From Bacteroidia bacterium (lineage in GTDB: Bacteria; Bacteroidota; Bacteroidia; UKL13-3): a DNA stretch of 64,000 bases. This document shows, piece after piece, positions 35,401 to 54,446 of the stretch. The position numbers and the translations under genes are program-made. How positions within the stretch are numbered: position 1 is the stretch's first letter; each line of letters begins with the position of its first letter. Below the pieces are notes generated by a model, which worked only from the letters and a program-made list of their open reading frames with translations, had not been told where the DNA came from and did not search any database. Location: assembly GCA_046296495.1 (NCBI GenBank), contig JBKBLB010000019.1, forward strand, positions 4,312 through 68,311, in the 5' to 3' direction.

Positions 35401-35510
35401 ACGAGGCTTTTAATACACAAAACCTGTTTAATATTTTTGAACGCAGCAGTATTGTTTTAAACCTAAATAACTTAAACCCGATAAAAGCCATCAGGAATAT
35501 TAAGTTCTAA
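32475..35510 (+). CDS. M1-family zinc metallopeptidase with a ~500-aa C-terminal extension
   Basis: Signal peptide MRIFSFLIINTCLFFKLSGQ. HEIGH at 33513-33527 followed by E at X18 (HEXXH-X18-E). The protein ends in ...IRNIKF. Confidence 0.85.
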   Translation: MRIFSFLIINTCLFFKLSGQIKTQNSFQQHVEYNIHVKLNETKRTLQGNIEIFYTNNAETSLDKIYMHLWPNAYKNRQTDYAKQKLENGSAEFHFSDKSKRGYIDSINFSVDNETVKWQYTDKNDIAVLNLNKPILPKQSIKISTPFFVKIPNVFSRMGYENGIFCITQWYPKPAVYDINGWNAMPYLDQGEFYSEFGKFTVHITVPKNMVVAATGNLQNKEEIEWLKNLSNENANLSSGVNGEKTLTYIQDSVHDFAWFASRDFKVLHDTFTLHNGKEVTAWLFAKNIQKQGIDYIKKGVKFYSQMVGEYPYKNATVVITPLKAGGGMEYPTITNCASIDETTIVHEIGHNWFYGILGSNEREYPWMDESINTFYENWYQEKVNKNAKNELEMAASIFGFNIFPKLSGQYGSILTYQYTARQNKEQAGNLPSTQYTDINYGTIIYAKNVIAFFYLKNYLGENLFNNMMQSYFQKWKFKHPLPDDFRKHCETFTGKDLSWFFNSTLSNGRYDYSFKKNKNTLLIKNKLNGIGPVPVSTVLYDSVLHTVWVEPNKYYEIDKLIPEGLTEKNELRLTIHKSLLPLDLYGQNNQLWLKNNSLKAPLKLSPLFYAEKDHITNVYYAPVYAYNLYNKSMLGMALYNSIYPQKRNEFVLMPVYAFGTNDVNGYAQYWHNFYTQGKIQRLSLGFNAARFAAMGIYTQSNTERIQQIINSFGAYYGNITYEKLAPFVALNLKPKHARSEIVQQLQARYVMVNQQERDLGYFKNFNNHIGIAELSYNYNNPFILYPSSFSASYQQGLKNSEISRLGISFTQSILYKDGKQKADLRLFGGTFLFQQNIDGNSLAGDNYGRAMFQAAGTTGQHDYLYDYAMFGRAENNPQRTLWARQAILRDAGFRNFVSVGSTDKIIFAANLTLPLPISLPVGFYADASYANLKSITNNTDVSYNYQLTYIGGFYVAIAKNVVAWYFPLLQSNNINEAFNTQNLFNIFERSSIVLNLNNLNPIKAIRNIKF

Positions 35511-37045
35511 TAAACTTTAGCAACAGCCAAATTTCCCTGAACTTTTATAATTTCTTTTTCACAATTTATTAAGCTGTCATGGTTCAATCGGTATAAAACG
35601 TAAACATTATTTTTTAAAGAATCTGGAATGTTTATATAAAGATTTTTTCTGAAATTTATTGAATTGTTATTAAAGTTTACTCCATAAATATTGCTGTATA
35701 AATAATACCATGCAATGCTGCGGTTAACAGTATGTATAAAAGCATGTGGCGAAACAACCAAGCTTCTTTTTGCATTGCATGAAAAAGAATTATCTTCAGG
35801 AAAAGTTATAAAAAGTGCATCATTGGCCAAGTTGTTATTTATCCATTGCTGTACAATTTCTAAATCTGTTTTTATATAATTACCAATTTTAATTTTATTT
35901 CTTAAACTGCTTGGAAACGAAAAATTAAAAACCGTAAACGAAAAAATAAACGCAAATAGTAATGCTGCTATTACAATAGTTTTAGGTTTAAAACTGCTAT
36001 TAATTTTACTAATTAATTGTGAGAAAAAATACGAAGCATAAACCGAAGCAAATGCGCATACCCACATACTGGCTTTAAACCATTGCAGCTTTGCTAAGCT
36101 AAAATTATTAAAAAGCTCAATAGTTACTGAGTAAATAATAGCAACTACAATAAAAACAACTGAGAAGTTTAATACGACATTTTTATAATTGGTTTTTGTT
36201 TTAATTATTCCGGCCAAAACAACTATTAACACCATTAAAAATTTTAAATAACTGCCTAAAGTAAATGCCGATGGCATATAGTGCCATGGAGCTCTAAAAG
36301 TAAACAATATTTGCTCAAAAAGTCTTTTTTCTTGAACCGAAACCGAAGTAAAATAATTACCAAAAACAGGTATTAAAATAAACAGACCCACAATACAGAA
36401 AGTTGAACTGAATATGATAAGATTTTTTAATTCTGATTTTTTAAATTCAAAAATCAAAAATAATGCTAAAATTACAAATGGCTGCAAAGCCGATAAAACC
36501 TGAAACAAAGCACCAAAACCAAATAAAAAGCCGCTAACAACAAAACGCCTTTTTAAAAAATAATAAATGCCAAAACTTGCAAAAACCTTAGCTATTACAC
36601 CGCCAATTAAAATATTGTATGTAATATGGTTTGAACCCAATGTAAATGCATAAAAAACAAACAACACAAAAAATGGCGTAAGCAACGAAGCCGTTATATT
36701 TTCTGTAACAATGTAAGCTATTTTTTGCCATATAAAACCTAAACTGAATAAACATAAAAGCCATACAGAAAAAAACAAAATCTCTATATCAATAAACTTT
36801 TGTAAATAATAAAATAATTGAACAAAAAAGAATCTGATGTTAAAGGCTGATTCATATCCGTTCATAAAAAAATCATTTTGATATAGCGATGGATTTACCA
36901 ATTTGTAAATTGGGGGCAAATGTTCTTCGTGATCGCCACTTGCAAACTGATAACCATAGCGAAGCATAAAAAACAACGTGTATGCTAAAGCCATTGTAAA
37001 AAACAAGTGGTTATTTTTAAAATATTTTTTCAAAGCAGTTTTCAA
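35507..37045 (-). CDS. polytopic membrane protein, unknown function
   Basis: 512 aa with more than 10 hydrophobic helices followed by a soluble C-terminal ~130 aa. No recognisable motif. Confidence 0.45.
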   Translation of the reverse strand: MKTALKKYFKNNHLFFTMALAYTLFFMLRYGYQFASGDHEEHLPPIYKLVNPSLYQNDFFMNGYESAFNIRFFFVQLFYYLQKFIDIEILFFSVWLLCLFSLGFIWQKIAYIVTENITASLLTPFFVLFVFYAFTLGSNHITYNILIGGVIAKVFASFGIYYFLKRRFVVSGFLFGFGALFQVLSALQPFVILALFLIFEFKKSELKNLIIFSSTFCIVGLFILIPVFGNYFTSVSVQEKRLFEQILFTFRAPWHYMPSAFTLGSYLKFLMVLIVVLAGIIKTKTNYKNVVLNFSVVFIVVAIIYSVTIELFNNFSLAKLQWFKASMWVCAFASVYASYFFSQLISKINSSFKPKTIVIAALLFAFIFSFTVFNFSFPSSLRNKIKIGNYIKTDLEIVQQWINNNLANDALFITFPEDNSFSCNAKRSLVVSPHAFIHTVNRSIAWYYLYSNIYGVNFNNNSINFRKNLYINIPDSLKNNVYVLYRLNHDSLINCEKEIIKVQGNLAVAKVY

Positions 37046-38125: not shown

Positions 38126-38584
38126 ATGCACTATTTTTTAACAAAAAAATTATATTCGCTACCAATTTTAATGATACGAATAGCCTTATTATTTCTATTA
38201 CTCACTGCCTCAACAGTAGCATTTGCCCAGCGTGGTTCTCAAAAAATGCTTAAAGGCTATGATGCCATTTACCCTTTTAAAAATGGCAAAGCAAAGGTTG
38301 AAAAAGGCGGAAAAATAGGCTACATAAACTTAGAGGGCGAAGAAATTATACCGCCCATTTACGATGCCATTTACCCTTTTGAAAGAGGTGTTGCCAAAGT
38401 TGAAAAAGCAGGCTTAATAGGAATGATAAACGAACAAGGCGAAATTCTGCTCGAAGCTGTTTACGATTACATTGGTCCTAACAAAAACGGCCTTGTTGTT
38501 GTTACCCGATTTGGTAAACGTGGCTTATGCAAAATTACCGGCAACACCCCCGATGATGTTGAATACATTGTTGATATAAGATAA
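38126..38584 (+). CDS. secreted WG-repeat protein
   Basis: Signal peptide, then three repeats of the type YDAIYPFxxGxAKVEKxGKxGxIN. Confidence 0.6.
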   Translation: MHYFLTKKLYSLPILMIRIALLFLLLTASTVAFAQRGSQKMLKGYDAIYPFKNGKAKVEKGGKIGYINLEGEEIIPPIYDAIYPFERGVAKVEKAGLIGMINEQGEILLEAVYDYIGPNKNGLVVVTRFGKRGLCKITGNTPDDVEYIVDIR

Positions 38585-41909: not shown

Positions 41910-42189
41910 GGCACAAATGTTTGGTAAAACCTTTTTTGCAAGGTAAACCTTGTGTTATTTTATCTTTAACAAATTGCATAATAAAACATACAGTTTAACC
42001 ATATCAGTACAAATAACGATTAATTTCCATTAAAAATCAGTCAATTATTATATCGTCATTTTTTTATATAGCATTTAAAATTTAACAAAAAATTAACACA
42101 CTTTTTAAAACAATGTAAATAGACCGCAGCCCTAACATTTACTTAACACGCGGGCATTATCCTTGAACAAAATTTCAAAAAAAATCTTT

Positions 42190-45100
42190 ATGAAACTAAA
42201 AAAACAATTTATCTACTTTATTACATTTTTACTATGCCTTTTGTTGAACCAAAGTTGGGGGCAGGTTAGTATTACAACACAAGCAACTTATCAAGAATCT
42301 TTTGATGGAATGGGCACATCTGGAACTGCTACATTACCAACTGGTTTTAAATTTGGTAATAACACAACTGATTGGACAGCAGGGGCAAACACAACTGCAA
42401 CAACTTTAGCTTACGGTACAACTGGAACAGGAGCTGTTACTGGAACTTCTAGTGGTGGTGCAATTAATTGGGCCAACGGTATAACAGGTAGTTCTACTGA
42501 AAGAGCAATAGGATATTTGACAACTAGTTCATTTTCGAGCCCTAGAGACATATTTTTTGCATTTACAAATAACACAGGTAGTACAATAAGCACATTAATT
42601 ATTAGTTGGGATTATGAAAAATACAGAAGTGGCTCAAGAGCATTTGACTGGACATTTTTTCATGGAAGTACAGCATCAAGTGTTAGTACATCTGCTACTG
42701 CAGGCGACCAAAGTTACAGTGCAGATGCAGATAATAATACAATCAATAATCCACCTACTATAATTAATAAAGCTGTTCTATTAACCGGTTTAAGCATAGG
42801 AAATGGTACTACATATTACTTTAGATGGAGATATGCAGGATCAGGTGGTTCAACAAATGCACAAGGATTGGCAATAGATAATTTAACATTAACATTTCCT
42901 CAAAACATACCCTATTCACAGAATTTTGGAACTACATCTTTTACAACTTATCCAGCAGGTTTTTACGGAAGATTGCAGGATGGAAGTTCAGTAAGCAGCC
43001 AATCTGCCGCTGAAGCAACAACACCTGTTGGTGGTATGGCTTTACTTGCTGCACAATCAGGCGCTTTCGGTTCAGAACCTTCCGGTGGTTTAAGAGGATT
43101 CGCTGTTTCTTCAAACGGACAATTAGCTATTTCAACTGCTAATAGCACAACTTCTGGATTAAATCAACCATTTTTAACTATTAATACAGGTTCAAATACT
43201 TCTTTGAATATTTCTTATGATGTTGAAATATTATTTTCTGGAAGTAGAACTATGGGACATGCTTTACAATACAGAACCGGAGTTTCTGGTTCATGGACAA
43301 CAGTTAGTGCTACTGCTACTAATATTGGCTCTAGCCCAATATTAAATTCGACAACCAGCATTTCAACTTCTCTAAGTGGTCTTTCAACAAACACTAATTA
43401 TCAATTTCGCTGGATAACATGGAGGGACCATGGTTCTGGTACTACTAATACATCTATTGGTATTGATAATATTTCATTTACTGCAGGAGCTACCCCAACC
43501 ATTACCCTAAACAACAACACCCAAATTACGGCTGGCAATGTAAACCAAGGTACTACCGACCATATTCTTTCTCGCTTTAGGGTTGAAGTTGCCACTGCAA
43601 ACGCCACTTTAAACCAAATTAGCTTTACTGCAGGAGGCACTTTTATTGCCGGTGATATTACCAATTTTAAATTATATACCTCAACCACCAATACTTTTCC
43701 GGGTGGCACACCGCTTGCTACCGTTAGTGCCGGCAGCATTGCCAATGGCGGAACCGTAACTTTCAGTTCATTATCTCAAAGTTGTGCCATTGGCGACCGC
43801 TATTTTTGGATTACTGCCGATGTTTCGGCTACCGCAACTGCTTCAAACACCGTTAGTGTTCCATCGCTTGGCGCTTCTAATTTTACTTTTGCCGCAGGTA
43901 TGCCTACCGGAACCATTGATGCCGGTGGCGCTCAAACCTTTGTAGTGGTTACACCCAATATTGTTTTAAGCTCTCCGGCTGCTTCATCAGCAGATATTAC
44001 CCAAGGACAAAACAATCAGGTAATTTATCGTTTTGATTTGGCTGTTACCGTTGCCAATGCCTCACTAAACGGAGTTACCGTTACTACTGCCGGAACTTAT
44101 GCTGCTGCCGACCTTACCAATATTAAATGCTGGTACTCGGCTGATAATTCGTTTGATGCAGGTACAGATGTATTGCTTTCTACCAAAACTACCGGCTTAG
44201 GAGCGGGCTCGCAGGTGTTTCCATCATTTACTTCTCAAACCATCAATTCAGGTTCTACAGGCTTTATATTTATTACGGTTGATTTGCCTTTAACAGCCAC
44301 ATCGGGCAATACCATTTCGGTAAATGCCATAACCACAGCCGATATTTCGTTTGTAAGCGGCAGCAAATCTGGTACTGCCAACACAAGTGGCACCAAAACC
44401 ATTATAGCTTGTACACCTACCAATGTTACTGGCTTAAGTTTAACTCCCGGCAACGGTCAAATTACCGTTAGCTGGACCAACCCAAGTTGTATGGATGACG
44501 TGGTTATTGCAGTTCATACAGCATCTATTTCTGCTTCGCCAAGCGGTGTGCCTACCATTAGTTCTTTATCATACACCGATGGTGCAAACCCAACCCTAAC
44601 GGGTGGGGCGGTTTTGGTTTACAGAGGTTCTACTTCGCCTCAAACCATTACAAGTTTAACCAACGGCACAACCTATTTTGTAAAAGTATTTACCAGAAGA
44701 GGAACTGTTTACAGCTCAGGTGTTGAATCGAGTGCTACGCCATCAAACATTACCGTGGGTGATTATCGTTCAAACAAAGCAACGGGAAACTGGGGTACTG
44801 CTGCCGACTGGGATACATGGAATGGAACATCATGGGTTACTGCCTCTTCTGCACCAACATCAACAACCAATGTAACTGTACAAAATGGTCATACATACAC
44901 TATACCGGGCTCAGGCACTCTTGAGTGTAATAACCTTACGGTTGATGCTGGCGGTAAATTATTTTATAATACTACCGGTGTAAGATATATTAGTATAAAC
45001 GGAAATATTACTTGTAACGGAACAATTGGAAACGGTACCACCCTTGATGGTATCAGTTTTAATATAAATGGTGCCTCTTGTACAATTAGCGGCTCCGGAA

Positions 45101-47316
45101 GCTTTGATTGTTTAAGGTTGAGAAAAAACAGTACTACTCCCGCAACAACTAACTTAACAATTTCAATGAATGTTAACGCCAGATTTAATGGTACTGCCAT
45201 ATACAATGAAGTTGCGGCTACTTTTAATGTTACAATAGCCTCGGGAGTTACCGTAACCTGCCCGGGAGACGGTACAAGTAACTCAAGAGGAAGTGTATCT
45301 ATAGACGGAACCGAAGGTACCGGTTCAGGAGAAAGGTCAGGTACATTAACCGTAAATGGAACTTTAACTTTATCGGGTACTGGAACCGGAACTGCTACCT
45401 TGTTTGCTAAAACAAACAATTCAACCGGTGCAGTTGCCATAGTTATTGCAAGTACAGGAACCATAAACACTAATATGGTAGATTTTGGCGCAAGCAGTGC
45501 AGCCGGACATACCTTTACCATTAATAGCGGTGGCATATTAAATATAACAGGCGAACCTGCAACTTTTATCACACCTTCAAATACCAATAATACTTACAGT
45601 TTTAATGCTAACTCAAACATAAACTATTCAAGAGCGGGCGATCAAACAATTTATACATTTGGAGAAACTGTATTTTGCGGAAATATTACTTTAAGCGGTA
45701 GCGGTGTTAAAAAAGTTCCTGCCGGCAGAACTTTAAACTTTAACGGAACTCTAACAACCGGTGGATTACTTACTTTAGAATCTACCTCGTCAGGAACTGC
45801 CAGAATTGGCGCTCTAACAACAGGCACCATTACAGGCAACGTAACCATTGAGCGTTTTATTCCTTCGAGCGTGCGTGCATGGCGCTACATGGCTGCGCCT
45901 TTTACAACCGGCCCTACCGTGGCAAGCAGTTGGCAGCAACAAATACACATAACCGGAAACGGCACAGGCGGTACCAATTGCCCTTCGTTAACCCAACATA
46001 CCAATGGTTTTGATGCCAGCGTACTAAACAATCCAAGCATGATGACCTTTAATGAAACCGTTGCAACTTCAACCAACAGTTTTGTAAACGGCTACCAAAG
46101 TATTGCAAATACCAATGCAACCAATTTAACTGCCGGCACAGGCTACATAGTTTTTGTTAGGGGTGCCAGAAGCCAGGGTTGCGCTTTGCTTGACGGTACA
46201 AACCCTACACCAAGTGCAGTTACAATTAGCGCAACAGGTGCGGTTCATCAAGGAACTTTTAATTTTACCGGCATTACTTATACGGCTGCCAACGGACAAG
46301 GATGGAATTTGGTTGGAAACCCCTTCCCAAGTAATATCAATTGGGATGCAAGCGGTTGGACAAGATCCAATATTGACGGAACTGTATATTTATATGTACC
46401 TGCCACCAATACTTTTACAAGCTGGAACGGAACAACCGGTACTAACGGAGCAACCGATGGTATTATACCTTCAAGCGGTGCTTTCTTTATCAAAGCCAAT
46501 GCATCATCTCCGGCCATGTCTATTACCGAAAACGTAAAAACGGCTTCAAATCCGGGTTTAGGCTTGTTTAAAAAACACGAGTTGGATAATGCCATTGAAA
46601 TTGCTTTCAGAAACACAACCGGTGCGGTTGACGAAACAAAAATTGTGTTCAGCAAATTTTATGAAAATAAATATGGCGATGATTTTGATGGAGAAAAACT
46701 TCACAACCTGAATAACTTAAATATATACTCTATTGTAGAAGCCAACACACCAAATGCTAAAAAATGTGTATTTAACGGGCTTGAACCTATAGAACCGGGC
46801 AACTCAACCGTTATTCCGCTTGGCATTACAACTCCAGCAAATGGAAATTATATTTTAAGTATAAATGTTGAAAAAATAGCCGAAAAACATGTTGTATGGT
46901 TGGTTGACCACTATTTAAAAACCCAAACTTTGCTTACCGGTACATTAAACATTCCGGTTACCATAAACAGCGACCCTGCCAGCAAAGGCGACAGCCGCTT
47001 TGAAATTGTGGTAAAACATGAATTAAATGTATTGAGCGAACCCATTGTAAATGCCACTAACAATACAGTATTTAATGTTTATCCGAACCCGGCTGCCAAT
47101 GTATTAAACATAGCTGCAACCTATACCAGCGGCAATGCTGTAACCGTAAACATTTACGATGCATTTGGCAAAAAAGTATTGCAGCACATACTTGAACCAA
47201 AAGCAGGCAATACCGCAAACGGCAGCATGGAAATAAGCAACCTGCAGGCCGGAACCTACTTTGTTGAAGTAAGCAACGGAGAAACCAAAAACATTTTTAA
47301 AACCATTAAATACTAA
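42190..47316 (+). CDS. giant secreted protein (1708 aa) with a type-A T9SS C-terminal sorting domain
   Basis: Signal peptide MKLKKQFIYFITFLLCLLLNQSWGQ and Thr/Ser/Gly/Asn-rich beta-type sequence. The C-terminus FNVYPNPAANVLNI...GTYFVEVSNGETKNIFKTIKY is a typical T9SS CTD. Confidence 0.85.
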   Translation: MKLKKQFIYFITFLLCLLLNQSWGQVSITTQATYQESFDGMGTSGTATLPTGFKFGNNTTDWTAGANTTATTLAYGTTGTGAVTGTSSGGAINWANGITGSSTERAIGYLTTSSFSSPRDIFFAFTNNTGSTISTLIISWDYEKYRSGSRAFDWTFFHGSTASSVSTSATAGDQSYSADADNNTINNPPTIINKAVLLTGLSIGNGTTYYFRWRYAGSGGSTNAQGLAIDNLTLTFPQNIPYSQNFGTTSFTTYPAGFYGRLQDGSSVSSQSAAEATTPVGGMALLAAQSGAFGSEPSGGLRGFAVSSNGQLAISTANSTTSGLNQPFLTINTGSNTSLNISYDVEILFSGSRTMGHALQYRTGVSGSWTTVSATATNIGSSPILNSTTSISTSLSGLSTNTNYQFRWITWRDHGSGTTNTSIGIDNISFTAGATPTITLNNNTQITAGNVNQGTTDHILSRFRVEVATANATLNQISFTAGGTFIAGDITNFKLYTSTTNTFPGGTPLATVSAGSIANGGTVTFSSLSQSCAIGDRYFWITADVSATATASNTVSVPSLGASNFTFAAGMPTGTIDAGGAQTFVVVTPNIVLSSPAASSADITQGQNNQVIYRFDLAVTVANASLNGVTVTTAGTYAAADLTNIKCWYSADNSFDAGTDVLLSTKTTGLGAGSQVFPSFTSQTINSGSTGFIFITVDLPLTATSGNTISVNAITTADISFVSGSKSGTANTSGTKTIIACTPTNVTGLSLTPGNGQITVSWTNPSCMDDVVIAVHTASISASPSGVPTISSLSYTDGANPTLTGGAVLVYRGSTSPQTITSLTNGTTYFVKVFTRRGTVYSSGVESSATPSNITVGDYRSNKATGNWGTAADWDTWNGTSWVTASSAPTSTTNVTVQNGHTYTIPGSGTLECNNLTVDAGGKLFYNTTGVRYISINGNITCNGTIGNGTTLDGISFNINGASCTISGSGSFDCLRLRKNSTTPATTNLTISMNVNARFNGTAIYNEVAATFNVTIASGVTVTCPGDGTSNSRGSVSIDGTEGTGSGERSGTLTVNGTLTLSGTGTGTATLFAKTNNSTGAVAIVIASTGTINTNMVDFGASSAAGHTFTINSGGILNITGEPATFITPSNTNNTYSFNANSNINYSRAGDQTIYTFGETVFCGNITLSGSGVKKVPAGRTLNFNGTLTTGGLLTLESTSSGTARIGALTTGTITGNVTIERFIPSSVRAWRYMAAPFTTGPTVASSWQQQIHITGNGTGGTNCPSLTQHTNGFDASVLNNPSMMTFNETVATSTNSFVNGYQSIANTNATNLTAGTGYIVFVRGARSQGCALLDGTNPTPSAVTISATGAVHQGTFNFTGITYTAANGQGWNLVGNPFPSNINWDASGWTRSNIDGTVYLYVPATNTFTSWNGTTGTNGATDGIIPSSGAFFIKANASSPAMSITENVKTASNPGLGLFKKHELDNAIEIAFRNTTGAVDETKIVFSKFYENKYGDDFDGEKLHNLNNLNIYSIVEANTPNAKKCVFNGLEPIEPGNSTVIPLGITTPANGNYILSINVEKIAEKHVVWLVDHYLKTQTLLTGTLNIPVTINSDPASKGDSRFEIVVKHELNVLSEPIVNATNNTVFNVYPNPAANVLNIAATYTSGNAVTVNIYDAFGKKVLQHILEPKAGNTANGSMEISNLQAGTYFVEVSNGETKNIFKTIKY

Positions 47317-47337
47317 ATCTTCTACCCAAACAATATC

Positions 47338-47946
47338 ATGAAAAAGATAAATTTAACCATTGCTCTTGTAGCCATACTGCTAATAAATGCCAAGGCAAAC
47401 ATGGCGCAAAACCTGTCGTTTAGAGAACAATTGCTTGAAGCATTGTATGGCGATGAAAGTTATGAACCCCAACGCTATGAAGATGAGGGAAACGAAGACG
47501 GCTTTTTTAACGACATGAACCAAAGCCGCTTTGCGAGCAGTTACAAAAGCAGCTACGAGCGTACTGATTACAGAATTGAAAACAGAAGAAACTTTGATTT
47601 TAACAGAAATACTCCTTCGTCAGGATATAATTTTAACGAACAATCATTTGATTTTTCTTCACCCCGAAATTACGGCAATGGCGGTGGCGCTGCTGGTGCC
47701 GGTGGTTTTGAACCTGTAACCATAAACCCGGGCAATTCTGCCGGAACCATAAACCAAGGTGGTAGTATTGGCATTGCCCCTTTTGAGCCGCCCAAACGCA
47801 GAGATGTAACCCCCGAAAATTCTCCCGGCCTACCCGGAGACCCTGATGTACCCGTTGATGGTGGCATTGTAGCCCTGCTTGCAGCCGGTGCCGCCTACGG
47901 AGCAAAGAGAAAATTTAAAAAAAATAATAAAAATTTACATATATGA
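47338..47946 (+). CDS. secreted low-complexity protein with a P-V-D-G-G + TM + KRK C-terminal tail
   Basis: Signal peptide (..AKANMA), an N/F/Y/G/D/E/R-rich body, and C-terminus DVPVDGGIVALLAAGAAYGAKRKFKK. Lies 21 nt after the upstream gene, and its stop overlaps the next start (ATGA). Confidence 0.7.
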   Translation: MKKINLTIALVAILLINAKANMAQNLSFREQLLEALYGDESYEPQRYEDEGNEDGFFNDMNQSRFASSYKSSYERTDYRIENRRNFDFNRNTPSSGYNFNEQSFDFSSPRNYGNGGGAAGAGGFEPVTINPGNSAGTINQGGSIGIAPFEPPKRRDVTPENSPGLPGDPDVPVDGGIVALLAAGAAYGAKRKFKKNNKNLHI

Positions 47947-50528
47947 AAAAAAATAATTTAGCATTAACAATTTTAAATCTTATTGTTATATTCGGATTAG
48001 TTAACAATAAAGCAAAATGTCAAATTCTTTTTCAAGACTTTTCGTCATCAACAACTGTAAGTGATTATGTTAATTCTTCTCCAAATTCAAACCAATTTAA
48101 TTCAATTAGTACATCGGGTACTGGAACTGTTATTTCAATCAATACCGGTCAATTGAGATTTGTAAGAACTGGTAATGCCGGTTCAATAAGTAGGACGACT
48201 GATTTTACTGGAAGTCCATCATCTTTGGTTGTTAGAATGCAACTTAATGTTCCTTCTAGTTCAGGTGCTACAACTTCTGCCGCTGTTTTTCAAATTGGTT
48301 CTGGTTTTACCACAAGTAATTCAGCCGAAAGTAATGCAAATACTCATTCAAGATTTGCTATTAATATTGGATCAACCAGTGGTCAATTTTCATTAAGAGA
48401 TATTAATGCTAGCGTAAACGGCACTACAACTTTATCAACATCAACTTTAATTACTTGGGTTATAAACAACTCAGGAGCATCAATTACCTATAGGGCTCCA
48501 AACGGTAATCAGGAAACGGTAGCCGATGACACATGGGATTTATGGATAGGTACTACAAAAGAATTTAATGATAGAGGAGCTACAACTACCTCTCAAAGTT
48601 TAGCAGACTTTAAATTTGCTTTTACTAGTGGTAGTGCAACTATTGATATTGATAATATTTCTGCAGATCCTTTGTCAATTATAAATAGCTTCAGAACATC
48701 TAGTGTAAATTCTACATGGACTAACTCTTCTGATTGGGAAATTTCAAATGATGGAAGTAACTGGACTTCTTCTTCAGTTATTCCAACTGTTAATTCACAC
48801 TCAATTTTAGTTAGAAATGGTCATGTTCTAACAATCCCTGGTCAATCAACTTCGACAACTTTTTTTGTAGATGATATATCAATTGAAAGCGGTGGCACAT
48901 TGAATGTTGGCAATTTAAATGATGTTTCGGATAATAATAATAATTTGGTGTTATACGTACATAATGGTGTCTCAACAAATGATGTCAACATTGATGGTAG
49001 TTTAATTGTTAATGAAAATGCAACTATAAGAACTAGAGGAACAATTAATAATAATTCTGTTTTTAGATTAGTTTCTTCTGACAAGGGTGATGCAAGAATT
49101 GGTGATTCTAAAGACGGTACATTTTCTGGTTCAATAACCGTGCAACGCTATTTGCCATCACGCAGGGCATTCAGGTTTTTGGCAAGCCCTGTTACCACAT
49201 CAAACTTTATAAGCAACAACTGGCAACAACAAACCCATATTACCGGAACCGGTGGTGCAAGCAACGGCTTTGATGCAAGCACATTAAACAATAACTCTAT
49301 GTTTACCTTAAACGAATCCACTCAAAGCTGGACGGCTATACCCAATACCAATGCAACCAATTTACAGCAAGGTGTAGGATACAGAATTTTAATAAGAGGC
49401 GACAGAACCGTAGATTTAACAAGCAATACAGCCACACCAACCGCGGTAACCCTTTCGGCCACCGGCACACACACAACCGGAGATAAAACATACAATACTT
49501 CATCTACTCCGGCTATTTCGGGCACTACCAACAACTATACCTTTTTAGGCAATCCGTTTCCATCTTCAATAGATTGGAATGCTGTTTCGAGAACCAATGT
49601 ATCAAGCACTTATTATACCTGGAGAGCTCAAGGCGGCACAAACAATCGTGGCGCTTACGTAAACTTTAATGCTACCGGAAACGTAAGTTCTGATGGCAAT
49701 ATCAATCAATACATTGGTTCAGGCCAAGGTTTTATGATACAAACAACCGGAGCTTCACCATCCATAACAATTGAAGAAGCCGATAAGGTTTCAAACGCTC
49801 AAGGCAACCAAATTAGAGGAAAATCAAGCAATCCAAACACGCTTAGAATAAATGTTTTTGAAGATGATTCAATTTTTGCCGATGGTTTTGTAATTTATCA
49901 AAACAATAATGCCAAAGATGAATACGAAGAATACGACTCGGAAAAATGGATTAATCCGGGATTGACCATGTACTCGTTAACGGCTGATAATAAAAAAGTT
50001 TCTATTCAAGGTTTTAAAACACTTACCATTGACAGGGTTATTGAACTTGGAATAGAAAAAACCGAAAAAACCAATTATAAATTAGAGTTTACCGAATTTG
50101 ATAATTTGCTGCTTGACCCTTATTTGATTGACAGGTTTACCAATACCGAAACCGATATAAAACGCAATCCGGTTTACCGATTTAATGTAAACGAGAATGC
50201 AAATTCATCAGCCATTAACCGTTTTAGCATTGTGTTTAAAAATTCAGCTTCAACCGGTGTAAACGAAGCCATAAACAACAATCGTTTTGTGGTGTATCCA
50301 AATCCGGCTGTTGATGTTTTAAATATTCAGTCAATCAGCCAAAATGTTTCAAGCCAAATAGACTATGTGGTTTATAACCAAATAGGCGCCAACATGCAAA
50401 GCGGGAATTTGCAACTTGGCGCAAACAACCAGGCTGCCATAAACATAAACAACCTAAGCAATGGTGTGTATTTTATACAACTGCTTGATGCAAAAGGTGG
50501 CGTTCAAACAATTAAATTTATTAAATAA
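47943..50528 (+). CDS. secreted protein (861 aa) with a type-A T9SS C-terminal sorting domain, paralog of 42190-47316
   Basis: Signal peptide. Shares the central module (RFLASPVTT..NNWQQQTHITGTGG..NGFDAS) with the upstream giant. C-terminus is FVVYPNPAVDVLNI...GVYFIQLLDAKGGVQTIKFIK. Confidence 0.85.
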   Translation: MKKNNLALTILNLIVIFGLVNNKAKCQILFQDFSSSTTVSDYVNSSPNSNQFNSISTSGTGTVISINTGQLRFVRTGNAGSISRTTDFTGSPSSLVVRMQLNVPSSSGATTSAAVFQIGSGFTTSNSAESNANTHSRFAINIGSTSGQFSLRDINASVNGTTTLSTSTLITWVINNSGASITYRAPNGNQETVADDTWDLWIGTTKEFNDRGATTTSQSLADFKFAFTSGSATIDIDNISADPLSIINSFRTSSVNSTWTNSSDWEISNDGSNWTSSSVIPTVNSHSILVRNGHVLTIPGQSTSTTFFVDDISIESGGTLNVGNLNDVSDNNNNLVLYVHNGVSTNDVNIDGSLIVNENATIRTRGTINNNSVFRLVSSDKGDARIGDSKDGTFSGSITVQRYLPSRRAFRFLASPVTTSNFISNNWQQQTHITGTGGASNGFDASTLNNNSMFTLNESTQSWTAIPNTNATNLQQGVGYRILIRGDRTVDLTSNTATPTAVTLSATGTHTTGDKTYNTSSTPAISGTTNNYTFLGNPFPSSIDWNAVSRTNVSSTYYTWRAQGGTNNRGAYVNFNATGNVSSDGNINQYIGSGQGFMIQTTGASPSITIEEADKVSNAQGNQIRGKSSNPNTLRINVFEDDSIFADGFVIYQNNNAKDEYEEYDSEKWINPGLTMYSLTADNKKVSIQGFKTLTIDRVIELGIEKTEKTNYKLEFTEFDNLLLDPYLIDRFTNTETDIKRNPVYRFNVNENANSSAINRFSIVFKNSASTGVNEAINNNRFVVYPNPAVDVLNIQSISQNVSSQIDYVVYNQIGANMQSGNLQLGANNQAAININNLSNGVYFIQLLDAKGGVQTIKFIK

Positions 50529-50547
50529 CCAATAAAAAATAAATCAC

Positions 50548-50724
50548 ATGAAAAATATACTAAAAGCACTTTTAACACTGGCTGTAATTGCTCTATTATC
50601 ATACCATGCATCGGCACAACCGGGTTTTGATGATGATGTACAAGACACCCCGCTTGATGGAGGTATAGCCCTTGTTGTAGGCAGCGCTTTGGCCTACGGT
50701 GCAATGAAAAAAAGAAAAAAATAA
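50548..50724 (+). CDS. 58-aa secreted mini-protein with a P-L-D-G-G + TM + KKRKK tail (not in the ORF track)
   Basis: Hand translation gives MKNILKALLTLAVIALLSYHASAQPGFDDDVQDTPLDGGIALVVGSALAYGAMKKRKK*. It lies 19 nt after the upstream stop and is followed by a strong terminator. Its tail is 13/26 identical to that of 47338-47946. Confidence 0.6.
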   Translation: MKNILKALLTLAVIALLSYHASAQPGFDDDVQDTPLDGGIALVVGSALAYGAMKKRKK

Positions 50725-50743: not shown

Positions 50744-50779
50744 AAAAAAGCAGGTGAAAATATTCACCTGCTTTTTTTA
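50744..50779. terminator. bidirectional intrinsic terminator
   Basis: Perfect 9-bp stem gcaggtgaa (50750-50758) / ttcacctgc (50763-50771) with a 4-nt loop, an A-run before and a T7 run after. It lies between the convergent mini-ORF (+) and the oxidoreductase (-). Confidence 0.85.
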
Positions 50780-50781
50780 TG

Positions 50782-51912
50782 CTAAATACTCATTAATGCA
50801 ACCACATCTTTTGCAATTTTGCTTCCAAGGGCAACTCCCATGCCGTTTAGCCTTGCACCAACAACAATATTGGTTTCAACCAATTTAACAACTGGCAGTT
50901 TATTTTTCCCAAAAGCCATTATGCCACTCCATTTGTGCTCTATTATAAATGCTGTATCGGGAATAATTATCTCTTTAAGGTAATAAACTAATTTATCAAT
51001 AATTTTTTGGTTTAAACCAAATTCGGTTGTGGTTTCAGTCTCAAAATCGAGGTTGCGGCCACCACCAAAAATAATGCGGTTTTCGAAATCGCGGAAGTAA
51101 TAAAAACCTTCATCAAAATTAAATGTTCCTTTAAACTTTAAGTTGGGTATTGGCGTTGTGCAAATTACTTGCCCTCTGCCGGGAGTTATATCATCTAAAT
51201 TTAGCAAATTACCGGTAAATGCATTGGTACAAACAGCCAATTTGTTGCAAGTAAAATTATATTCGGTTTGGTTTGATGTAGCCATTACCTTAACAACATT
51301 ACTATTGCTTTCAATATGGTTTACAATAGCTCCTGTTGTAATGTGAATGCCTAAACTGTAACAATAATTAATCAGGTTTTTCATCATTTTACCGGTATCA
51401 ATCTGTCCTTCAAAATCGTTGCATATAATGGTATCAACCATGTTTTTGTTGAAACCGAATTGCTCTACCAGTTTTTTATTTTCGGAGAAAATATTTTTAT
51501 TCAGTAAAGGAAAAAGCAATTCATTCATTTCATCAAGTTTATCAAGATGATGCTTTACATTGTTTTTTAAAATCATTTCAAAACCGCCATTGTTTTGGTA
51601 GTCTATATTGTCATCGCCTAAACGATTTCGCAGCAATTGCAAACCCGTTATTCTGTTATTTATTAATTGCAGCAATGCATCTTTTCCCATAAGTCCCAAA
51701 TCGTAAACCTTTTCGCTAAGGGTTCCAATACATGCAAAACCGGCATTTTTGGTACTTGCTCCTGTAGGAAGTAAGCCTCTTTCCAAAACCATTACAGTAG
51801 CTTTAGGTTTTTGCTCTTTTATTTCACAAGCAGTACTAAGGCCTGTAATACCTGCTCCTACAACAATAAAATCGTAGTGCAAAAACTCTTTCTTATCCCA
51901 AAACGATAACAT
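50782..51912 (-). CDS. FAD-dependent oxidoreductase (DAO/glycine oxidase-like family)
   Basis: YDFIVVGAGITGLS dinucleotide fold. 376 aa. Confidence 0.75.
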   Translation of the reverse strand: MLSFWDKKEFLHYDFIVVGAGITGLSTACEIKEQKPKATVMVLERGLLPTGASTKNAGFACIGTLSEKVYDLGLMGKDALLQLINNRITGLQLLRNRLGDDNIDYQNNGGFEMILKNNVKHHLDKLDEMNELLFPLLNKNIFSENKKLVEQFGFNKNMVDTIICNDFEGQIDTGKMMKNLINYCYSLGIHITTGAIVNHIESNSNVVKVMATSNQTEYNFTCNKLAVCTNAFTGNLLNLDDITPGRGQVICTTPIPNLKFKGTFNFDEGFYYFRDFENRIIFGGGRNLDFETETTTEFGLNQKIIDKLVYYLKEIIIPDTAFIIEHKWSGIMAFGKNKLPVVKLVETNIVVGARLNGMGVALGSKIAKDVVALMSI

Positions 51913-51914
51913 AT

Positions 51915-54446
51915 TTATTTTCCTAACTCTATTAAATTTACCAATAATTTTAATGCTCCGGTATTTGCAGCAGGCAACTGCCTAAAAAAAGAAAGCCCGG
52001 TATATACATAGTTACCTTTACCGTATTTACAAACTATCAATCCGCCTTCATCGGGTTTTTCGTTTGGGTCGGCCATGCTAATAAGTGGTGTAAAATTATT
52101 GTCCCATGCAGTTGCATGGTAAATGCTTCTTTCCTGAACCCAGTTTTCAAAATCTTTTGAAGTAATTTTGTTAGGCTTGTTAAATGCAGGATGTTCGGGA
52201 ACTAATAAATTAACTTCGGCATTTTCATCGGTAATACGGTTGCGGCTAATTTTAAACGGATATGGACCAATATTTTGATTTAATGGACCAAAAAAGTTAT
52301 TGGTTTGATATTGTACTACCACATTGCCACCGTTTTTTAAATAATCAAGAATCAATTGTTTTTGCTTATTTAAAACTTCGCTGGTATTGTAAGCCCTAAC
52401 ACCAACAACTACTGCATCAAACAATTTTAAATCGCCTGTTTTCCAAAATTCATCTGTAATTTCGAATACTTTGTAACCTAACTGCTTTAAGCATTCTGCA
52501 ACACCATCTCCGGGTCCGTTCACATAGCCAATCAACTTACTTTTGGTTTCAATAGGTTCATAATTTAAATTTACGGTAGCATCAGGAAACCAAGATTGTA
52601 TGGGTATATGGTTGTATTTTATTTCATTTAACCCTACACCGTATTTTTCACCATCAACCATAGCAAAGCATTGTAAACTAGCGGCCTTAGCAGCATTTGG
52701 TTTTGGTTCAACCGATAAAGTAACTTCAAAAAAATCTCCACTTTTGTTTAATGTATAATCATCAAGTATTAAACCCGTTGGTAAATTTTTATACACTTTG
52801 CGATTTAATGCTTTAATACTGTATGTTTCATCGGTTTCAAAAAAAGGCGTAAAAGTTATGTTATCTTTAATGGCACTAAACCTAAAAGTAACTGTTTTAA
52901 CTTCGGGTTTGCAAAACAAAAGTTGTTCTTTGCTTATGTTTATTGTTACAGGTGGGCTTAGTAAAACCGGCCTATATAGTTCTCCTTTATCAGGTTCAAC
53001 CCATTTATATATTACAGGAATTTGTTTTTCAATAAAATGTTTTTCATTTATTTTAAACAAAACAGTTATTACCCTCGAAAAATCACCCTCATTATTTGCA
53101 TAATAGGTTTGGGTTGATGATAGCATGTTGTTTTGTAAGCCATTTTTTATCCATGGAATTTGGCTGTATGTTTTTGTATTTACTTTGGTTTGATAGGTGT
53201 ATTTATACCAATCGTTAATGGGCAAAACAGTATCTGAAACTATGTTATTATTATTTGAAAGATTGTGCCTGATTAAAATAACTTTATATTCATCATTATT
53301 TCTTTTAATAATGTTTAGTTGTATTTGCAAGCTGTCGGCAAATGAAGTATAAAACTTATTGGCAGTTGCTTCGGTATAAATACCAAGGCATTGTAAAATA
53401 ATATCATCAAGCTTTTGCTCGAACCAAATTTTATGATTGATTAAATCTTTATTGGTGGAATTAATTTTTTTTAATAATTCTTTTACCGCCAACAATGTTT
53501 GAACCGATTTGTGGGGATTTAAAGCATCAAAAATTTTGATGGTTTTAAGCAAAATTTTTTCTATTGCTTTAAATTCATTGAATCTTGCAAGTGAAAAATC
53601 AATTCCATCAAATATTGAATTTGTTTGAGGCTTATCACCTTTTATAAATTGAAAATATTCGTAGTAATTGCCGCGTTGCAAACTGCTACCAAAGCCCTGG
53701 CTTTTGTGCATACTTCTGCTTTGCGCAGCAATTTCTCCGTAGCTTTTTCCTAATATATTGTTAAAACCACCAACATTTAATGGTATATACTGACTCATAT
53801 CGGCATTGGGATTTGCAAAACGTGTACTTACATTCCAAACCAAACGCTTTGCCTTCCACAATCCTGTTTCATTTATTTGCCAACTAAACATATCAGGGTT
53901 TGCAGCTGCATCAAACGCTTCTTCTGCCAGCAATGCCGAAGCCGTATGATGGCCGTGACCGCCACTTCCATCAGTTGCAAAACGAGTTATAATTACATCG
54001 GGTTTAAAAGTTCTTATAATGTAAACCATATCTGCCAACACACTGTCTTTATTCCATTTTGTTAGTGTTTCTTCGGGAGATTTGCTGTAACCAAAATCGT
54101 AAGCACGGGTAAAAAACTGAATGCCGCCATCAATTTTTCTGGCTTCAAGTAACTCATGGGTTCTTATCATTCCCAATTCTATGCCTTGCTCTGAGCCAAT
54201 TAAATTTTGACCACCATCGCCACGTGTAAGGCTTAAATAAGCTGTTCGTAAATGCATTTCGTTTGCAAGGTATGCCAGCAGTCTTGTGTTTTCATCATCA
54301 GGATGTGCTGCTATATACAAAACACTTCCTGCTGTTTTAAGCTTATTCAATTCAAGTAAAATATCGCTCGAACTGTTAAACTTAATTTGAGCAAAACAAA
54401 TAAAACCAAATAGTGTAAGGATAGTAGTAAGGCTAAATTTTTTCAT
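51915..54446 (-). CDS. PIG-L/LmbE-family deacetylase fused to a large C-terminal region
   Basis: Signal peptide, then AAHPDDENTRL and GHGHH in the N-terminal ~250 aa. The C-terminal ~200 aa (AVVVGVRAYNT...GGNVVVQYQT) looks like a ThuA/class-I-amidotransferase-like fold (inference). Confidence 0.7.
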   Translation of the reverse strand: MKKFSLTTILTLFGFICFAQIKFNSSSDILLELNKLKTAGSVLYIAAHPDDENTRLLAYLANEMHLRTAYLSLTRGDGGQNLIGSEQGIELGMIRTHELLEARKIDGGIQFFTRAYDFGYSKSPEETLTKWNKDSVLADMVYIIRTFKPDVIITRFATDGSGGHGHHTASALLAEEAFDAAANPDMFSWQINETGLWKAKRLVWNVSTRFANPNADMSQYIPLNVGGFNNILGKSYGEIAAQSRSMHKSQGFGSSLQRGNYYEYFQFIKGDKPQTNSIFDGIDFSLARFNEFKAIEKILLKTIKIFDALNPHKSVQTLLAVKELLKKINSTNKDLINHKIWFEQKLDDIILQCLGIYTEATANKFYTSFADSLQIQLNIIKRNNDEYKVILIRHNLSNNNNIVSDTVLPINDWYKYTYQTKVNTKTYSQIPWIKNGLQNNMLSSTQTYYANNEGDFSRVITVLFKINEKHFIEKQIPVIYKWVEPDKGELYRPVLLSPPVTINISKEQLLFCKPEVKTVTFRFSAIKDNITFTPFFETDETYSIKALNRKVYKNLPTGLILDDYTLNKSGDFFEVTLSVEPKPNAAKAASLQCFAMVDGEKYGVGLNEIKYNHIPIQSWFPDATVNLNYEPIETKSKLIGYVNGPGDGVAECLKQLGYKVFEITDEFWKTGDLKLFDAVVVGVRAYNTSEVLNKQKQLILDYLKNGGNVVVQYQTNNFFGPLNQNIGPYPFKISRNRITDENAEVNLLVPEHPAFNKPNKITSKDFENWVQERSIYHATAWDNNFTPLISMADPNEKPDEGGLIVCKYGKGNYVYTGLSFFRQLPAANTGALKLLVNLIELGK

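Follow-up and report, generated by a model that had tools for sequence, protein, structure and literature searches.

The 58-codon ORF that closes a four-gene operon in the 64,000-nucleotide stretch of Bacteroidia DNA analyzed here (the window) is, as comparison with its homologues indicates, a genuine gene of the PID-CTERM family, and its tiny, tail-only product is likely to be an exosortase substrate. The ORF thereby adds another case to PID-CTERM, a kind already known to databases. What is apparently undescribed in the literature that we searched, the curators' own descriptions aside, is the synteny of such mini genes with adhesin genes and the mostly cargo-less membership of the family. As read from gene order, the pairing suggests that two envelope-sorting systems may be linked.

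The 58-Codon ORF and Its Predicted Product

A sequence-only reading of the window had proposed a short ORF at positions 50548-50724 of the + strand, and we found it exactly there, with the translation MKNILKALLTLAVIALLSYHASAQPGFDDDVQDTPLDGGIALVVGSALAYGAMKKRKK followed by a stop codon. The layout that had been claimed for the 58-aa product is also seen, that is, a (predicted) signal peptide, 11 acidic linker residues, and a sorting-type tail (Table 1). Hydropathy reveals two hydrophobic stretches, at residues ~3-23 and 40-53, with a net charge of -5 on the 16-residue segment between them, while the basic KKRKK runs right up to the stop codon. From hydropathy and the family alignment, cleavage is predicted between A-S-A and Q, which would leave an N-terminal Gln; a Gln at the N terminus after signal-peptide cleavage is the Q-rule of Bacteroidetes, the subject of PMC5837995 and PMC10653852. 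Were both the signal peptide and the tail removed, the acidic linker would be all that remained of the protein besides the P-L-D-G-G motif, which is the presumed exosortase recognition or cleavage site.

Table 1. Coordinates of the operon, of the parts of the 58-codon gene, and of the terminator (window positions)
Feature	Position	Strand	Evidence
1717-aa RemA-family T9SS cargo, first operon gene	42163..47316	+	Por_Secre_tail match, module HMM match
202-aa long PID-CTERM protein	47338..47946	+	NF046080, 37.3 bits vs. cut-off 26
861-aa second RemA-family T9SS cargo	47943..50528	+	TIGR04183, PF18962, module HMM
58-aa cargo-less PID-CTERM mini-protein gene	50548..50724	+	Start 19 nt past adhesin gene; family match, homologues
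Predicted Sec signal peptide, residues 1-23	50548..50616	+	Hydropathy; A-Q nearly invariant in family alignment
Acidic linker QPGFDDDVQDT, residues 24-34	50617..50649	+	PGFDDDVQDTP invariant in closest homologues
P-L-D-G-G signature motif of PID-CTERM (P35 to G39)	50650..50664	+	NF046080 model begins at residue 34
Hydrophobic stretch IALVVGSALAYGAM, 14 residues, then basic tail KKRKK	50665..50721	+	Hydropathy; conserved G..YG.KK pattern in family alignment
Terminator hairpin between A-tract and T-tract, end of four-gene operon	50744..50779	.	Folding

Since 16 kb of this 34% G+C window hold 71 ORFs of at least 40 aa, the length of the 58-codon ORF is not significant by itself, and its coding status rests on its homologues. 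No Pfam match was found on record for the exact 58-aa product, and a search for RNA runs holding the ORF found none, the holders being listed as "DNA?" (a guessed kind) from a hot-springs metagenome. A shorter Logan contig, of 19.5 kb, also carries the ORF. The hairpin that follows the stop codon folds with -22 kcal/mol (z = -6.9), and 0/200 shuffles folded as well; it could serve both strands since the convergent gene at 50782-51912 ends there. A simple pattern scan did not list this hairpin, which folding shows clearly.

Two Tails of One Sorting-Signal Family

The tail of the 58-aa protein had been described as identical at 13 of 26 positions to that of the 202-aa protein encoded in the same operon, and recomputation returned the same figure. 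Because both tails match the curated PID_CTERM model NF046080, their similarity is not due to chance; they are homologous members of one sorting-signal family rather than generic TM helices, in line with what had been proposed. The 202-aa protein scores above the cut-off of this model (Table 1; E 1.7e-9), and the 58-aa protein, with 24.3 bits (E 2e-5, over profile positions 1-25 at full length), falls narrowly short of the 26 bits set for membership, a borderline miss rather than an absence. The 58-aa protein has P-[IVL]-D-G-G right before its hydrophobic stretch, and the hydrophobic helix and basic cluster are at the extreme C terminus. When all six frames of the window were scanned for tails in which P-x-D-G-G, a TM segment, and a basic cluster precede a stop, only these two were found.

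The family is abundant well beyond the window, which rules out local duplication as the source of the likeness between the two tails. Mini proteins of other genomes match the 58-aa protein with 59% identity over the full length, and the relatives of 56-79 aa returned by a first search have an identical PGFDDDVQDTP[LI]DGGI core between divergent signal peptides and tails. A profile search yielded 716 clusters when homologues were grouped at 50% identity and no fewer than 6131 when they were grouped at 90%, with nearly all of the highest-ranked homologues 50-90 aa long. The P, D, G, and G of the motif are invariant in 112 distinct genes, in which they are encoded by all synonymous codons. It is this synonymous-codon diversity at invariant residues alone that we used, pN/pS having been set aside because of saturation at synonymous sites (pS about 0.74) and because gapless anchoring misaligns linkers with indels. 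PF28310 is on record for homologues 54-65% identical to the 58-aa protein, and some homologues are named by NCBI [quoted passage not shown]; no mention of either PID-CTERM or XrtX was found in the literature searched. Across the family, a median of 11 residues lies between the predicted signal-peptidase site and the P of PxDGG. With essentially no cargo and so short a linker, the predicted products fit the proposal that the ORF specifies a minimal substrate, or a handle, for a sorting enzyme.

The Four-Gene Operon

The operon is composed, in this order, of an adhesin gene, a PID-CTERM gene, a second adhesin gene, and the 58-codon gene as its second PID-CTERM gene, and both of the large genes carry a RemA/RemZ-like module. 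The 1717-aa protein, for which the TTG start is merely the first possible start codon, exhibits a variable N-terminal head with hints of BNR_assoc_N and fn3, followed by the module (about residues 1207-1630) and by a type-A CTD (residues 1639-1716), and shows 32% identity to the module and CTD of its 861-aa paralogue (E 2e-56). The 202-aa gene, which starts 21 nt past the 1717-aa adhesin gene, encodes a signal peptide ending in …ANMA before Q, then a ~147-residue low-complexity spacer rich in G, N, S, and E, and after it PGLPGDPDVPVDGG, a hydrophobic stretch, and a basic tail. Its stop codon is overlapped by the ATG of the 861-aa gene (ATGA).

The 861-aa protein shows a weak G8 match in its head, the module at about residues 378-780, and at residues 784-861 a type-A CTD that scores above the cut-offs of both TIGR04183 (33.3 bits, cut-off 23) and PF18962 (40.4 bits, cut-off 27). 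Homology extends beyond the CTD, since a family profile that includes this protein matches residues 697-1112 of RemZ in the PDB (E 3.9e-33) and residues 1034-1434 of RemA (E 1.1e-30), while CTD-only PDB chains reach only about 32-38 bits with the adhesin-family profile. The domain search detected no lectin domain in the 861-aa protein.

Mini Genes Follow RemA/RemZ-Like Adhesin Genes

The partner of the mini genes is specifically the RemA/RemZ-like adhesin family and not T9SS cargo in general. Across 107 related loci (1.1 Mb in total), a mini gene lies directly 3' of 82 of the 85 ORFs that combine a RemA/RemZ-like module with a T9SS type-A CTD, whereas this is the case for 0/28 of the other complete (CTD-only) T9SS cargo genes; these loci were all collected by way of their mini genes, so that such specificity figures rest on internal controls and not on whole genomes. 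The suggestion that homologues would occupy a conserved position right after T9SS-CTD genes held when it was checked, with 27 matches to Por_Secre_tail among the 27 upstream C termini tested. The upstream proteins, 71 from 68 loci, form one homology cluster with variable heads and a common ~400-aa C-terminal module, in which four arginines (R408, R411, R485, and R760) are nearly invariant; Ice_binding, NHL, LamG, and G8 are present in the heads of related adhesins. Linkage to an adhesin gene is seen for 85% of the mini genes, about 16 of the 108 with readable upstream DNA being not adhesin-linked. A search for the remZ/remA locus of F. johnsoniae with a RemZ fragment taken from the PDB alignment gave only three short metagenomic fragments.

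The acidic linker of the PGFDDDV type occurs in 50 of the 90 adhesin-linked mini proteins versus 2 of the 17 others (Fisher p = 0.001), and the remaining 40 adhesin-linked mini proteins display other P/G/D-rich linkers. Consequently, PGFDDDV was rejected as a universal adhesin-binding epitope, and the pairing cannot be put down to any one peptide epitope. In tandem adhesin arrays, the 3' cassettes are 82-97% identical and each paralogue has a mini gene of its own.

Exosortase and Polysaccharide-Export Neighbors

A small exosortase gene adjoins the mini gene in 8 of the 107 loci and is directly downstream of it in 7 of these 8; in L054, an adhesin gene followed by two mini genes has the exosortase gene on its upstream side. 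In L103, L071, and L054, all three kinds of gene (adhesin, mini, and exosortase) occur in one string. The best match is XrtX in L054, L093, L103, L104, and L107, and XrtY in L071, L097, and L098. Ranked from highest to lowest, the XrtX scores are 165.6, 124.1, 117.5, 114.3, and, for a truncated ORF, 71.9 bits (cut-off 170), and the XrtY scores are 119.6, 114.5, and 95.8 bits (cut-off 160). As all of these are below the cut-offs of NF046081 and NF046083, we call the neighbors XrtX-like and XrtY-like. The TIGR04178 exosortase/archaeosortase signature (cut-off 23 bits) is matched by six of the proteins with 36-52.6 bits and by that of L107 with 23.3 bits, and no TIGR04178 match was found for the truncated L097 ORF. 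In an alignment of four of the neighbor exosortases, a Cys (..CN[GA]..), an Arg (LN[IV].R), and a His are conserved. A candidate sorting enzyme for the mini proteins can now be named, an XrtX- or XrtY-like exosortase, whose gene stands beside the mini gene in these 8 loci. The accessions run from NF046080 (PID_CTERM) through NF046081 (XrtX) and NF046082 (XrtX-associated) to NF046083 (XrtY), and this consecutive numbering suggests that the curators built them as one system.

XrtF was rejected as the enzyme in these lineages because the neighbors match XrtX/XrtY better (for example, 165.6 vs. 88.1 bits), and it is retained solely as a lead for Flavobacterium. The first ten multi-TM neighbor candidates contained no exosortase, the matches having emerged from recurrent neighbors of orphan mini genes. 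Other orphan mini genes head Wza/Wzc/NusG-like export loci, and linkage to polysaccharide export is typical of exosortase systems. As for the 64-kb window itself, it contains no exosortase gene, which counts against reading the 58-aa protein as an exosortase substrate.

Discussion

Our working model, which we hold tentatively and rate at slightly less than an even chance, is that each adhesin is produced together with a mini protein that serves an exosortase as a substrate without cargo and possibly acts as a surface anchor or handle. The mini protein would be exported by Sec and cut after A-S-A, whereupon its short hydrophobic stretch and KKRKK tail would hold it in the inner membrane with only about 16 acidic residues (QPGFDDDVQDTPLDGG) facing the periplasm. 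Recognition of P-x-D-G-G at the membrane surface would then fall to one of the small XrtX/XrtY-type exosortases of Bacteroidota. Going by analogous systems built on exosortases, archaeosortases, or rhombosortases, this enzyme would remove the anchor and transfer the short peptide to an acceptor in the envelope, either a lipid or an exported polysaccharide. There, as a handle in the envelope, the peptide may help to keep the adhesin expressed with it at the cell surface or to direct it there. Since RemA-family type-A adhesin genes have their own mini gene directly downstream (82/85), the mini protein is most likely a one-per-adhesin partner; precedent for single-use partners comes from the PorP/SprF-like genes found directly downstream of type-B T9SS cargo genes.

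The idea that PID-CTERM mini proteins supply the surface anchors or targeting handles so far missing for gliding adhesins with a type-A CTD is, in our estimation, unlikely to be right. An exosortase of the XrtX/XrtY type would join the short acidic peptide to a lipid or an exported polysaccharide, and the RemA-family adhesin of the same operon would be held on the surface through that peptide, either non-covalently via its pre-CTD module or covalently via PorU-type transpeptidation. Because the inner membrane is where the mini protein starts out and the surface is where the adhesin ends up, such an anchor needs a further export step. If true, this would be the first functional coupling of an exosortase system with the type IX secretion system, and it might account for the colonization and biofilm phenotypes that F. 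johnsoniae mutants in the exosortase gene xrtF have in common with porU, porZ, and porV mutants.

The strict 1:1 co-operonic arrangement would also suit a mini protein that is never processed and serves as a single-pass inner-membrane holdase or targeting tether, its acidic stub binding the adhesin module before hand-over to the T9SS. Such a tether would make sense of a module with several nearly invariant arginines and a stub with a net charge of -5, and cleavage of the tail is, after all, a step that we infer. We nevertheless think a permanent tether improbable, since the invariant positions are concentrated in P-x-D-G-G at the edge of the membrane, the pattern of cleaved sorting signals, exosortase genes adjoin mini genes in 8 loci, and a hydrophobic stretch of 14 residues is short for a stable TM helix; moreover, linkers vary widely among adhesin-linked mini proteins and, according to the literature, the CTD of RemA is by itself enough to get sfGFP secreted. 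Practically no likelihood is left for the view that the ORF is open by chance or arose as an artefact when the 202-aa gene's tail was duplicated locally. Its shortness, its NF046080 score below the cut-off, the lack of a recorded Pfam match to the exact product, and the lack of RNA runs found to hold it would fit an artefact, but comparative data refute this, with thousands of independent homologues of the same size, a conserved position, and synonymous-codon variation at invariant residues; the ORF also has its own predicted signal peptide and terminator and is closer to the mini proteins of other genomes (59% identity) than to the 202-aa protein of the window.

Orphan mini genes, some directly upstream of xrtX- or xrtY-like genes and further ones at the head of Wza/Wzc/NusG-like export loci, point to another role, for which we see a small chance. 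The mini protein might belong mainly to an exosortase/polysaccharide system, as a primer, a cap, or a peptide decoration of a polysaccharide or glycolipid, or as a decoy or regulator of XrtX/XrtY, and adhesin genes would carry a mini gene because adhesins work with the polymer, not for anchoring. Exosortase systems elsewhere stabilize polysaccharide at the cell surface and affect motility, and RemA of F. johnsoniae is a lectin that is genetically linked to wza and wzc. Such a role is hard to reconcile with the adhesin linkage of 85% of the mini genes. Moreover, each adhesin paralogue keeps its own copy, even in tandem arrays with 82-97% identical 3' cassettes, which argues for a per-adhesin requirement over a general polymer function.

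Two questions in the literature are touched by a cargo-less substrate paired with each adhesin: how RemA and other type-A T9SS adhesins stay on the cell surface and reach the gliding machinery, and which substrates the short Bacteroidota exosortase XrtF acts on. Among the tiny ORFs of Chitinophagaceae-type Bacteroidota, this one, usually left "hypothetical" or uncalled, ranks with the most common, and its product is, to judge from its sequence, a cargo-less exosortase-type substrate. Gene for gene, it is linked to RemA-family adhesins and, in certain genomes, also to an exosortase gene. PID-CTERM genes of 56-70 codons are below common ORF length filters, and the ORF in the window is also just below the curated HMM cut-off.

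Comparison with Known Systems

The system closest in kind is PID-CTERM with XrtX/XrtY (NF046080-NF046083; PF28310), with which the 58-aa protein shares P-[IVL]-D-G-G, a short hydrophobic stretch, and a C-terminal basic cluster, and members of which adjoin XrtX- or XrtY-like genes in related loci; it differs in that the ORF is just under the cut-off and that the window has neither xrtX nor xrtY. PEP-CTERM/exosortase systems (EpsH, XrtA; cyanoexosortase CrtB) exhibit the same tripartite tail, an inner-membrane enzyme of the exosortase family, and ties to polysaccharide export loci with surface or motility phenotypes. However, the motif in the mini proteins is PxDGG and not PEP, the enzymes beside the mini genes are of the short (~180 aa) Bacteroidota type, and PEP-CTERM proteins normally have a real passenger domain, in contrast to the passenger of about 11 residues in the mini proteins.

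Among adhesins, RemA and RemZ of Flavobacterium johnsoniae have in common with the upstream genes a pre-CTD region of ~330 aa and a type-A CTD, while the heads differ and no SUEL-lectin match is seen among the upstream adhesins. The arrangement is reminiscent of SprB-SprF of F. johnsoniae, in which a cargo-specific partner gene likewise lies immediately 3' of a T9SS adhesin gene, and a PorP/SprF-like partner is believed to be required in stoichiometric amounts and to determine the ultimate localization. There, the partner is an outer-membrane beta-barrel shuttle for type-B CTDs, whereas the cargo in the window operon bears a type-A CTD and is paired with a 58-aa sorting-signal protein, predicted to reside in the inner membrane.

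Two further systems bear on how a peptide could end up holding a protein on the surface. In the PorU sortase/A-LPS system of Porphyromonas gingivalis, type-A cargo, once cleaved, is passed to an amine nucleophile, and since amino acids and short peptides can replace A-LPS as the acceptor, a surface-displayed peptide handle is chemically conceivable in that role; the mini peptide, for its part, has no lysine, and its N-terminal Gln is expected to cyclize under the Q-rule. GlyGly-CTERM/rhombosortase (VesB of Vibrio cholerae) resembles the present case in its Gly-Gly motif at the membrane boundary, the difference being that the tail there is on the secreted enzyme itself and here on a separate mini protein. 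The cleaved VesB-type protein gains a moiety containing glycerophosphoethanolamine that keeps the secreted protein on the cell surface, and by analogy this system could be a useful model for a processed tail that becomes a surface anchor.

Identification of the mini gene

The sequence-only reading had picked out an unlisted 58-codon ORF, the mini gene, whose product ends in a tail resembling that of a nearby 202-aa protein. The frame is indeed intact from ATG to TAA and translates to MKNILKALLTLAVIALLSYHASAQPGFDDDVQDTPLDGGIALVVGSALAYGAMKKRKK, which by hydropathy displays an N-terminal hydrophobic segment up to A-S-A|Q, 16 middle residues with a net charge of -5 between both hydrophobic segments, and a C-terminal 14-residue hydrophobic stretch (50665-50706) followed by KKRKK. 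In the family alignment, the distance between GG and the first Lys is similarly short. The likeness of the tails holds as well (13/26 residues identical), and both proteins match the NCBIfam model NF046080 (PID-CTERM protein-sorting domain), the 202-aa protein with 37.3 bits for a cut-off of 26 and the 58-aa protein with 24.3 bits (E 2e-5), below the cut-off and spanning all 25 model positions. A six-frame search of the window shows PID-CTERM-type tails ahead of a stop codon just in these two proteins. Since such an ORF length is unremarkable in a window with 34% G+C and 71 ORFs of ≥40 aa per 16 kb, the argument for a gene is a comparative one, drawn from other genomes.

The ATGA overlap listed in the table implies translational coupling within a putative four-gene operon (42163-50724), which has housekeeping neighbors (Ddl-like ligase, FAD oxidoreductase, purK, and ribD). 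The hairpin behind it, composed of an A-tract, a stem, and a T-tract, was missed by a consensus terminator scan and found by folding; lying between convergent genes, it may stop transcription from either side. Elsewhere, the window holds a carotenoid-related gene group (12688-14494, minus strand).

Features of the operon and of its surroundings in the window. The module is the RemA/RemZ-like region just before the type-A C-terminal domain (CTD) of T9SS cargo.
Feature	Position	Strand	Remark
T9SS cargo, 1717 aa	42163-47316	+	with module
Gap, 1717-aa to 202-aa gene			21 nt
PID-CTERM protein, 202 aa	47338-47946	+
Start/stop overlap, 202-aa and 861-aa genes	47943-47946		ATGA
T9SS cargo, 861 aa	47943-50528	+	with module
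Gap, 861-aa gene to mini gene			19 nt
Mini gene	50548-50724	+	58 aa
Terminator hairpin	about 50744-50779		-22 kcal/mol, z = -6.9 (folding)
Lycopene cyclase domain protein	12688-13371	-
Fatty-acid-hydroxylase-family protein	13371-13952	-
Caroten_synth protein	13817-14494	-
843-aa protein	51915-54446	-	unusually long; N-terminal PIG-L/MshB-like deacetylase region
8-TM protein	35507-37045	-	sole match DUF6798
WG-repeat protein	38126-38584	+

A large family of short proteins

Homologues are annotated with Pfam PF28310 (PID_CTERM), and some bear the NCBI name 'PID-CTERM protein-sorting domain-containing protein [Chitinophagaceae bacterium]'. The ORF is thus a borderline-scoring new member of a family whose tail domain, like the exosortases XrtX and XrtY, already has a curated model; that the accessions run on from NF046080 to NF046083 hints at a joint definition of tail and enzymes by the curators. 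A single-sequence search returned relatives of 56-79 aa with an identical PGFDDDVQDTP[LI]DGGI core and divergent signal peptides and hydrophobic tails. A profile search yielded 716 clusters at 50% identity, where almost every one of the 150 listed measures 50-90 aa, and a broader one at least 6131 clusters at 90% identity, with 120/120 listed at 59-88 aa, so the tails for which the sequence-only reading proposed a search are abundant. Its impression that hardly any cargo separates signal peptide from tail extends to the whole family, in which the predicted signal-peptidase cut and the P of PxDGG are a median of 11 residues apart, and which is essentially tail-only. At the invariant P, D, G, and G, every synonymous codon is used (112 distinct genes from 107 loci), a pattern expected under selection on the protein.

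With its low-complexity spacer of ~147 residues, the 202-aa protein represents a long form of the family. In three homologues (P0012, P0016, and P0021), the acidic motif PGFxDDxxD occurs twice in tandem before the PxDGG tail, which suggests that the motif may be a functional unit by itself. Another protein (P0033, 1439 aa) has several ~50-aa repeats with 'WQPGRDEAVQDKPIDR' and seven matched stretches to the mini-protein profile, without the tail; it appears unrelated and calls for caution in searches by motif alone.

Pairing with RemA-family adhesin genes

Our sample comprised 24 loci from genomes of species representatives and 80 from metagenomes, the latter retrieved via a more divergent subfamily. 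The genome loci are all from Bacteroidota, mostly MAGs labeled Bacteroidetes, Bacteroidia, Chitinophaga, Chitinophagaceae, or Ferruginibacter; one carries a cyanobacterial label, and one is the isolate Hymenobacter terricola 3F2. All pairing frequencies are conditional on the presence of the mini gene, through which the loci were collected: among their 120 PID-CTERM ORFs, 108 have readable upstream DNA, and 92 of these come right after a T9SS-CTD gene on the same strand or follow one as part of a tandem; Por_Secre_tail (Pfam) matches 27/27 upstream C-termini tested. The place downstream of T9SS-CTD genes, raised by the earlier reading, is therefore conserved.

Of the upstream proteins, 71 (from 68 loci) fall into one homology cluster. 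While their N-terminal heads differ (Ice_binding, NHL, LamG, G8, and others), they have in common the C-terminal module of ~400 aa, for which we found no Pfam family and which is present in both large window proteins (32% identity, E 2e-56). Against PDB sequences, the adhesin-family profile matches Flavobacterium johnsoniae RemZ (residues 697-1112, E 3.9e-33) and RemA (residues 1034-1434, E 1.1e-30), far above CTD-only chains. With flanking genes as internal controls, the mini gene comes next in 82/85 ORFs with module and CTD and in 0/28 complete CTD-bearing ORFs without the module from the same loci; seven apparent exceptions to the pairing are contig-truncated or CTD-only fragments. Mini genes are thus linked one-to-one to genes whose predicted products are RemA-family adhesins, not arbitrary T9SS cargo.

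Some loci show further arrangements. L015 contains three tandem adhesin-mini units whose 3' cassettes of CTD and mini gene (958-1576, 5593-6211, and 10114-10717, ~4.5 kb apart) share 82-97% DNA identity, with no such repeat in the rest of the units; such a cassette might allow adhesins to recombine or to swap heads. L014 (9610-11089) has three mini genes within 1.5 kb, one of them behind a 93-aa CTD-only ORF (10586-10867), apparently left over from a duplication or deletion of the cassette. In L109 (1-14013), which comes from a 5.0-Mb metagenomic contig, the surroundings are rich in T9SS genes, with a 1708-aa Peptidase_C25 (PorU-like) gene and an RDD-family gene beside the pair and CHU_C type-B cargo, PorP_SprF, and OmpA-domain genes on the opposite side.

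Exosortase and polysaccharide neighbors

We found no conserved enzyme gene accompanying adhesin-mini pairs among the loci, and no exosortase gene within the 64-kb window, which was taken from a hot-springs metagenome contig. The orphan mini genes, those not linked to an adhesin gene, are informative here, and mini genes recurrently adjoin XrtX- or XrtY-like genes. In L093, L103, L104, and L107, the mini gene is overlapped by a gene for a ~180-aa multi-pass protein or has its start 1-12 nt downstream, and one of this type directly precedes the adhesin gene in L054, where two mini genes follow the adhesin. The best match of these proteins is XrtX (NF046081; 165.6, 117.5, 124.1, 71.9 for a truncated ORF, and 114.3 bits), followed by XrtF, while neighbors in L071, L097, and L098 best match XrtY (NF046083; 96-120 bits). 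All score below the high family-specific cut-offs; the exosortase/archaeosortase signature TIGR04178 is passed by all scored except the truncated L097 ORF, and Cys, Arg, and His are conserved in an alignment of four. The gene behind the L093 exosortase weakly matches NF046082 ('XrtX-associated membrane protein'), and adhesin, mini gene, and exosortase form one gene string in L103, L071, and L054. On an estimate of one or two exosortase genes for a multi-megabase genome, adjoining exosortase genes in 8 loci, within 1.1 Mb of loci, are far above chance.

A second context of orphan mini genes consists of polysaccharide export loci (L056, L074, L079, and L087), recalling the classical occurrence of exosortases at EPS loci. 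These orphans have a GDPG.DPD linker and head a string of Wza-like (Poly_export), Wzc-like (Wzz/GNVR/AAA_31), and NusG-like genes (10001-14405 in L056).

A possible role for the mini protein

We favor a role for the mini protein as an anchor or handle that partners the adhesin stoichiometrically and is used once, because each adhesin paralogue has its own mini-gene copy. After Sec export, it would be cleaved at A-S-A|Q, the new N-terminal Gln probably becoming pyroglutamate under the Bacteroidetes Q-rule (PMC5837995 and PMC10653852), and would be held in the inner membrane as a transient anchor. On the model of exosortase and rhombosortase systems, an exosortase would then cut at PxDGG and pass an acidic peptide of ~15 residues to an envelope acceptor. 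This scheme has weak points: the topology needs an extra step, as the mini protein would sit in the inner membrane and its partner on the cell surface, and the linker is heterogeneous, PGF[DG]DDVxD being found in 50 of 90 mini proteins linked to adhesins and DPGxDPD or P-rich sequences in the others.

That the ORF is spurious, its unremarkable length notwithstanding, is excluded by the comparative data. We consider an uncleaved periplasmic tether or holdase unlikely; with only about 14 residues, the hydrophobic stretch is on the short side for a helix that spans the bilayer stably, and better suits an anchor that serves sorting for a time. We are just as doubtful of a role centered on the polysaccharide and exosortase system, to which the orphans at Wza/Wzc-type loci point and against which the adhesin pairing stands.

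Comparison with known systems

In the literature searched, we found 'PID-CTERM', 'XrtX', or 'exosortase X' nowhere in the relevant sense, nor descriptions of a sampled family made almost wholly of cargo-less mini proteins, of its near-obligatory tie to RemA-family type-A T9SS adhesin genes, or of the physical linkage of adhesin, mini gene, and exosortase in some genomes. A single-use partner has a precedent in the PorP/SprF-like genes directly 3' of type-B T9SS cargo genes. In F. johnsoniae, XrtF is an exosortase without reported substrates, and xrtF mutants have colonization, biofilm, and zorb defects in common with porU, porZ, and porV mutants. The synteny reported here offers a testable bridge, not proof, between the question of XrtF substrates and these shared xrtF/por mutant phenotypes.
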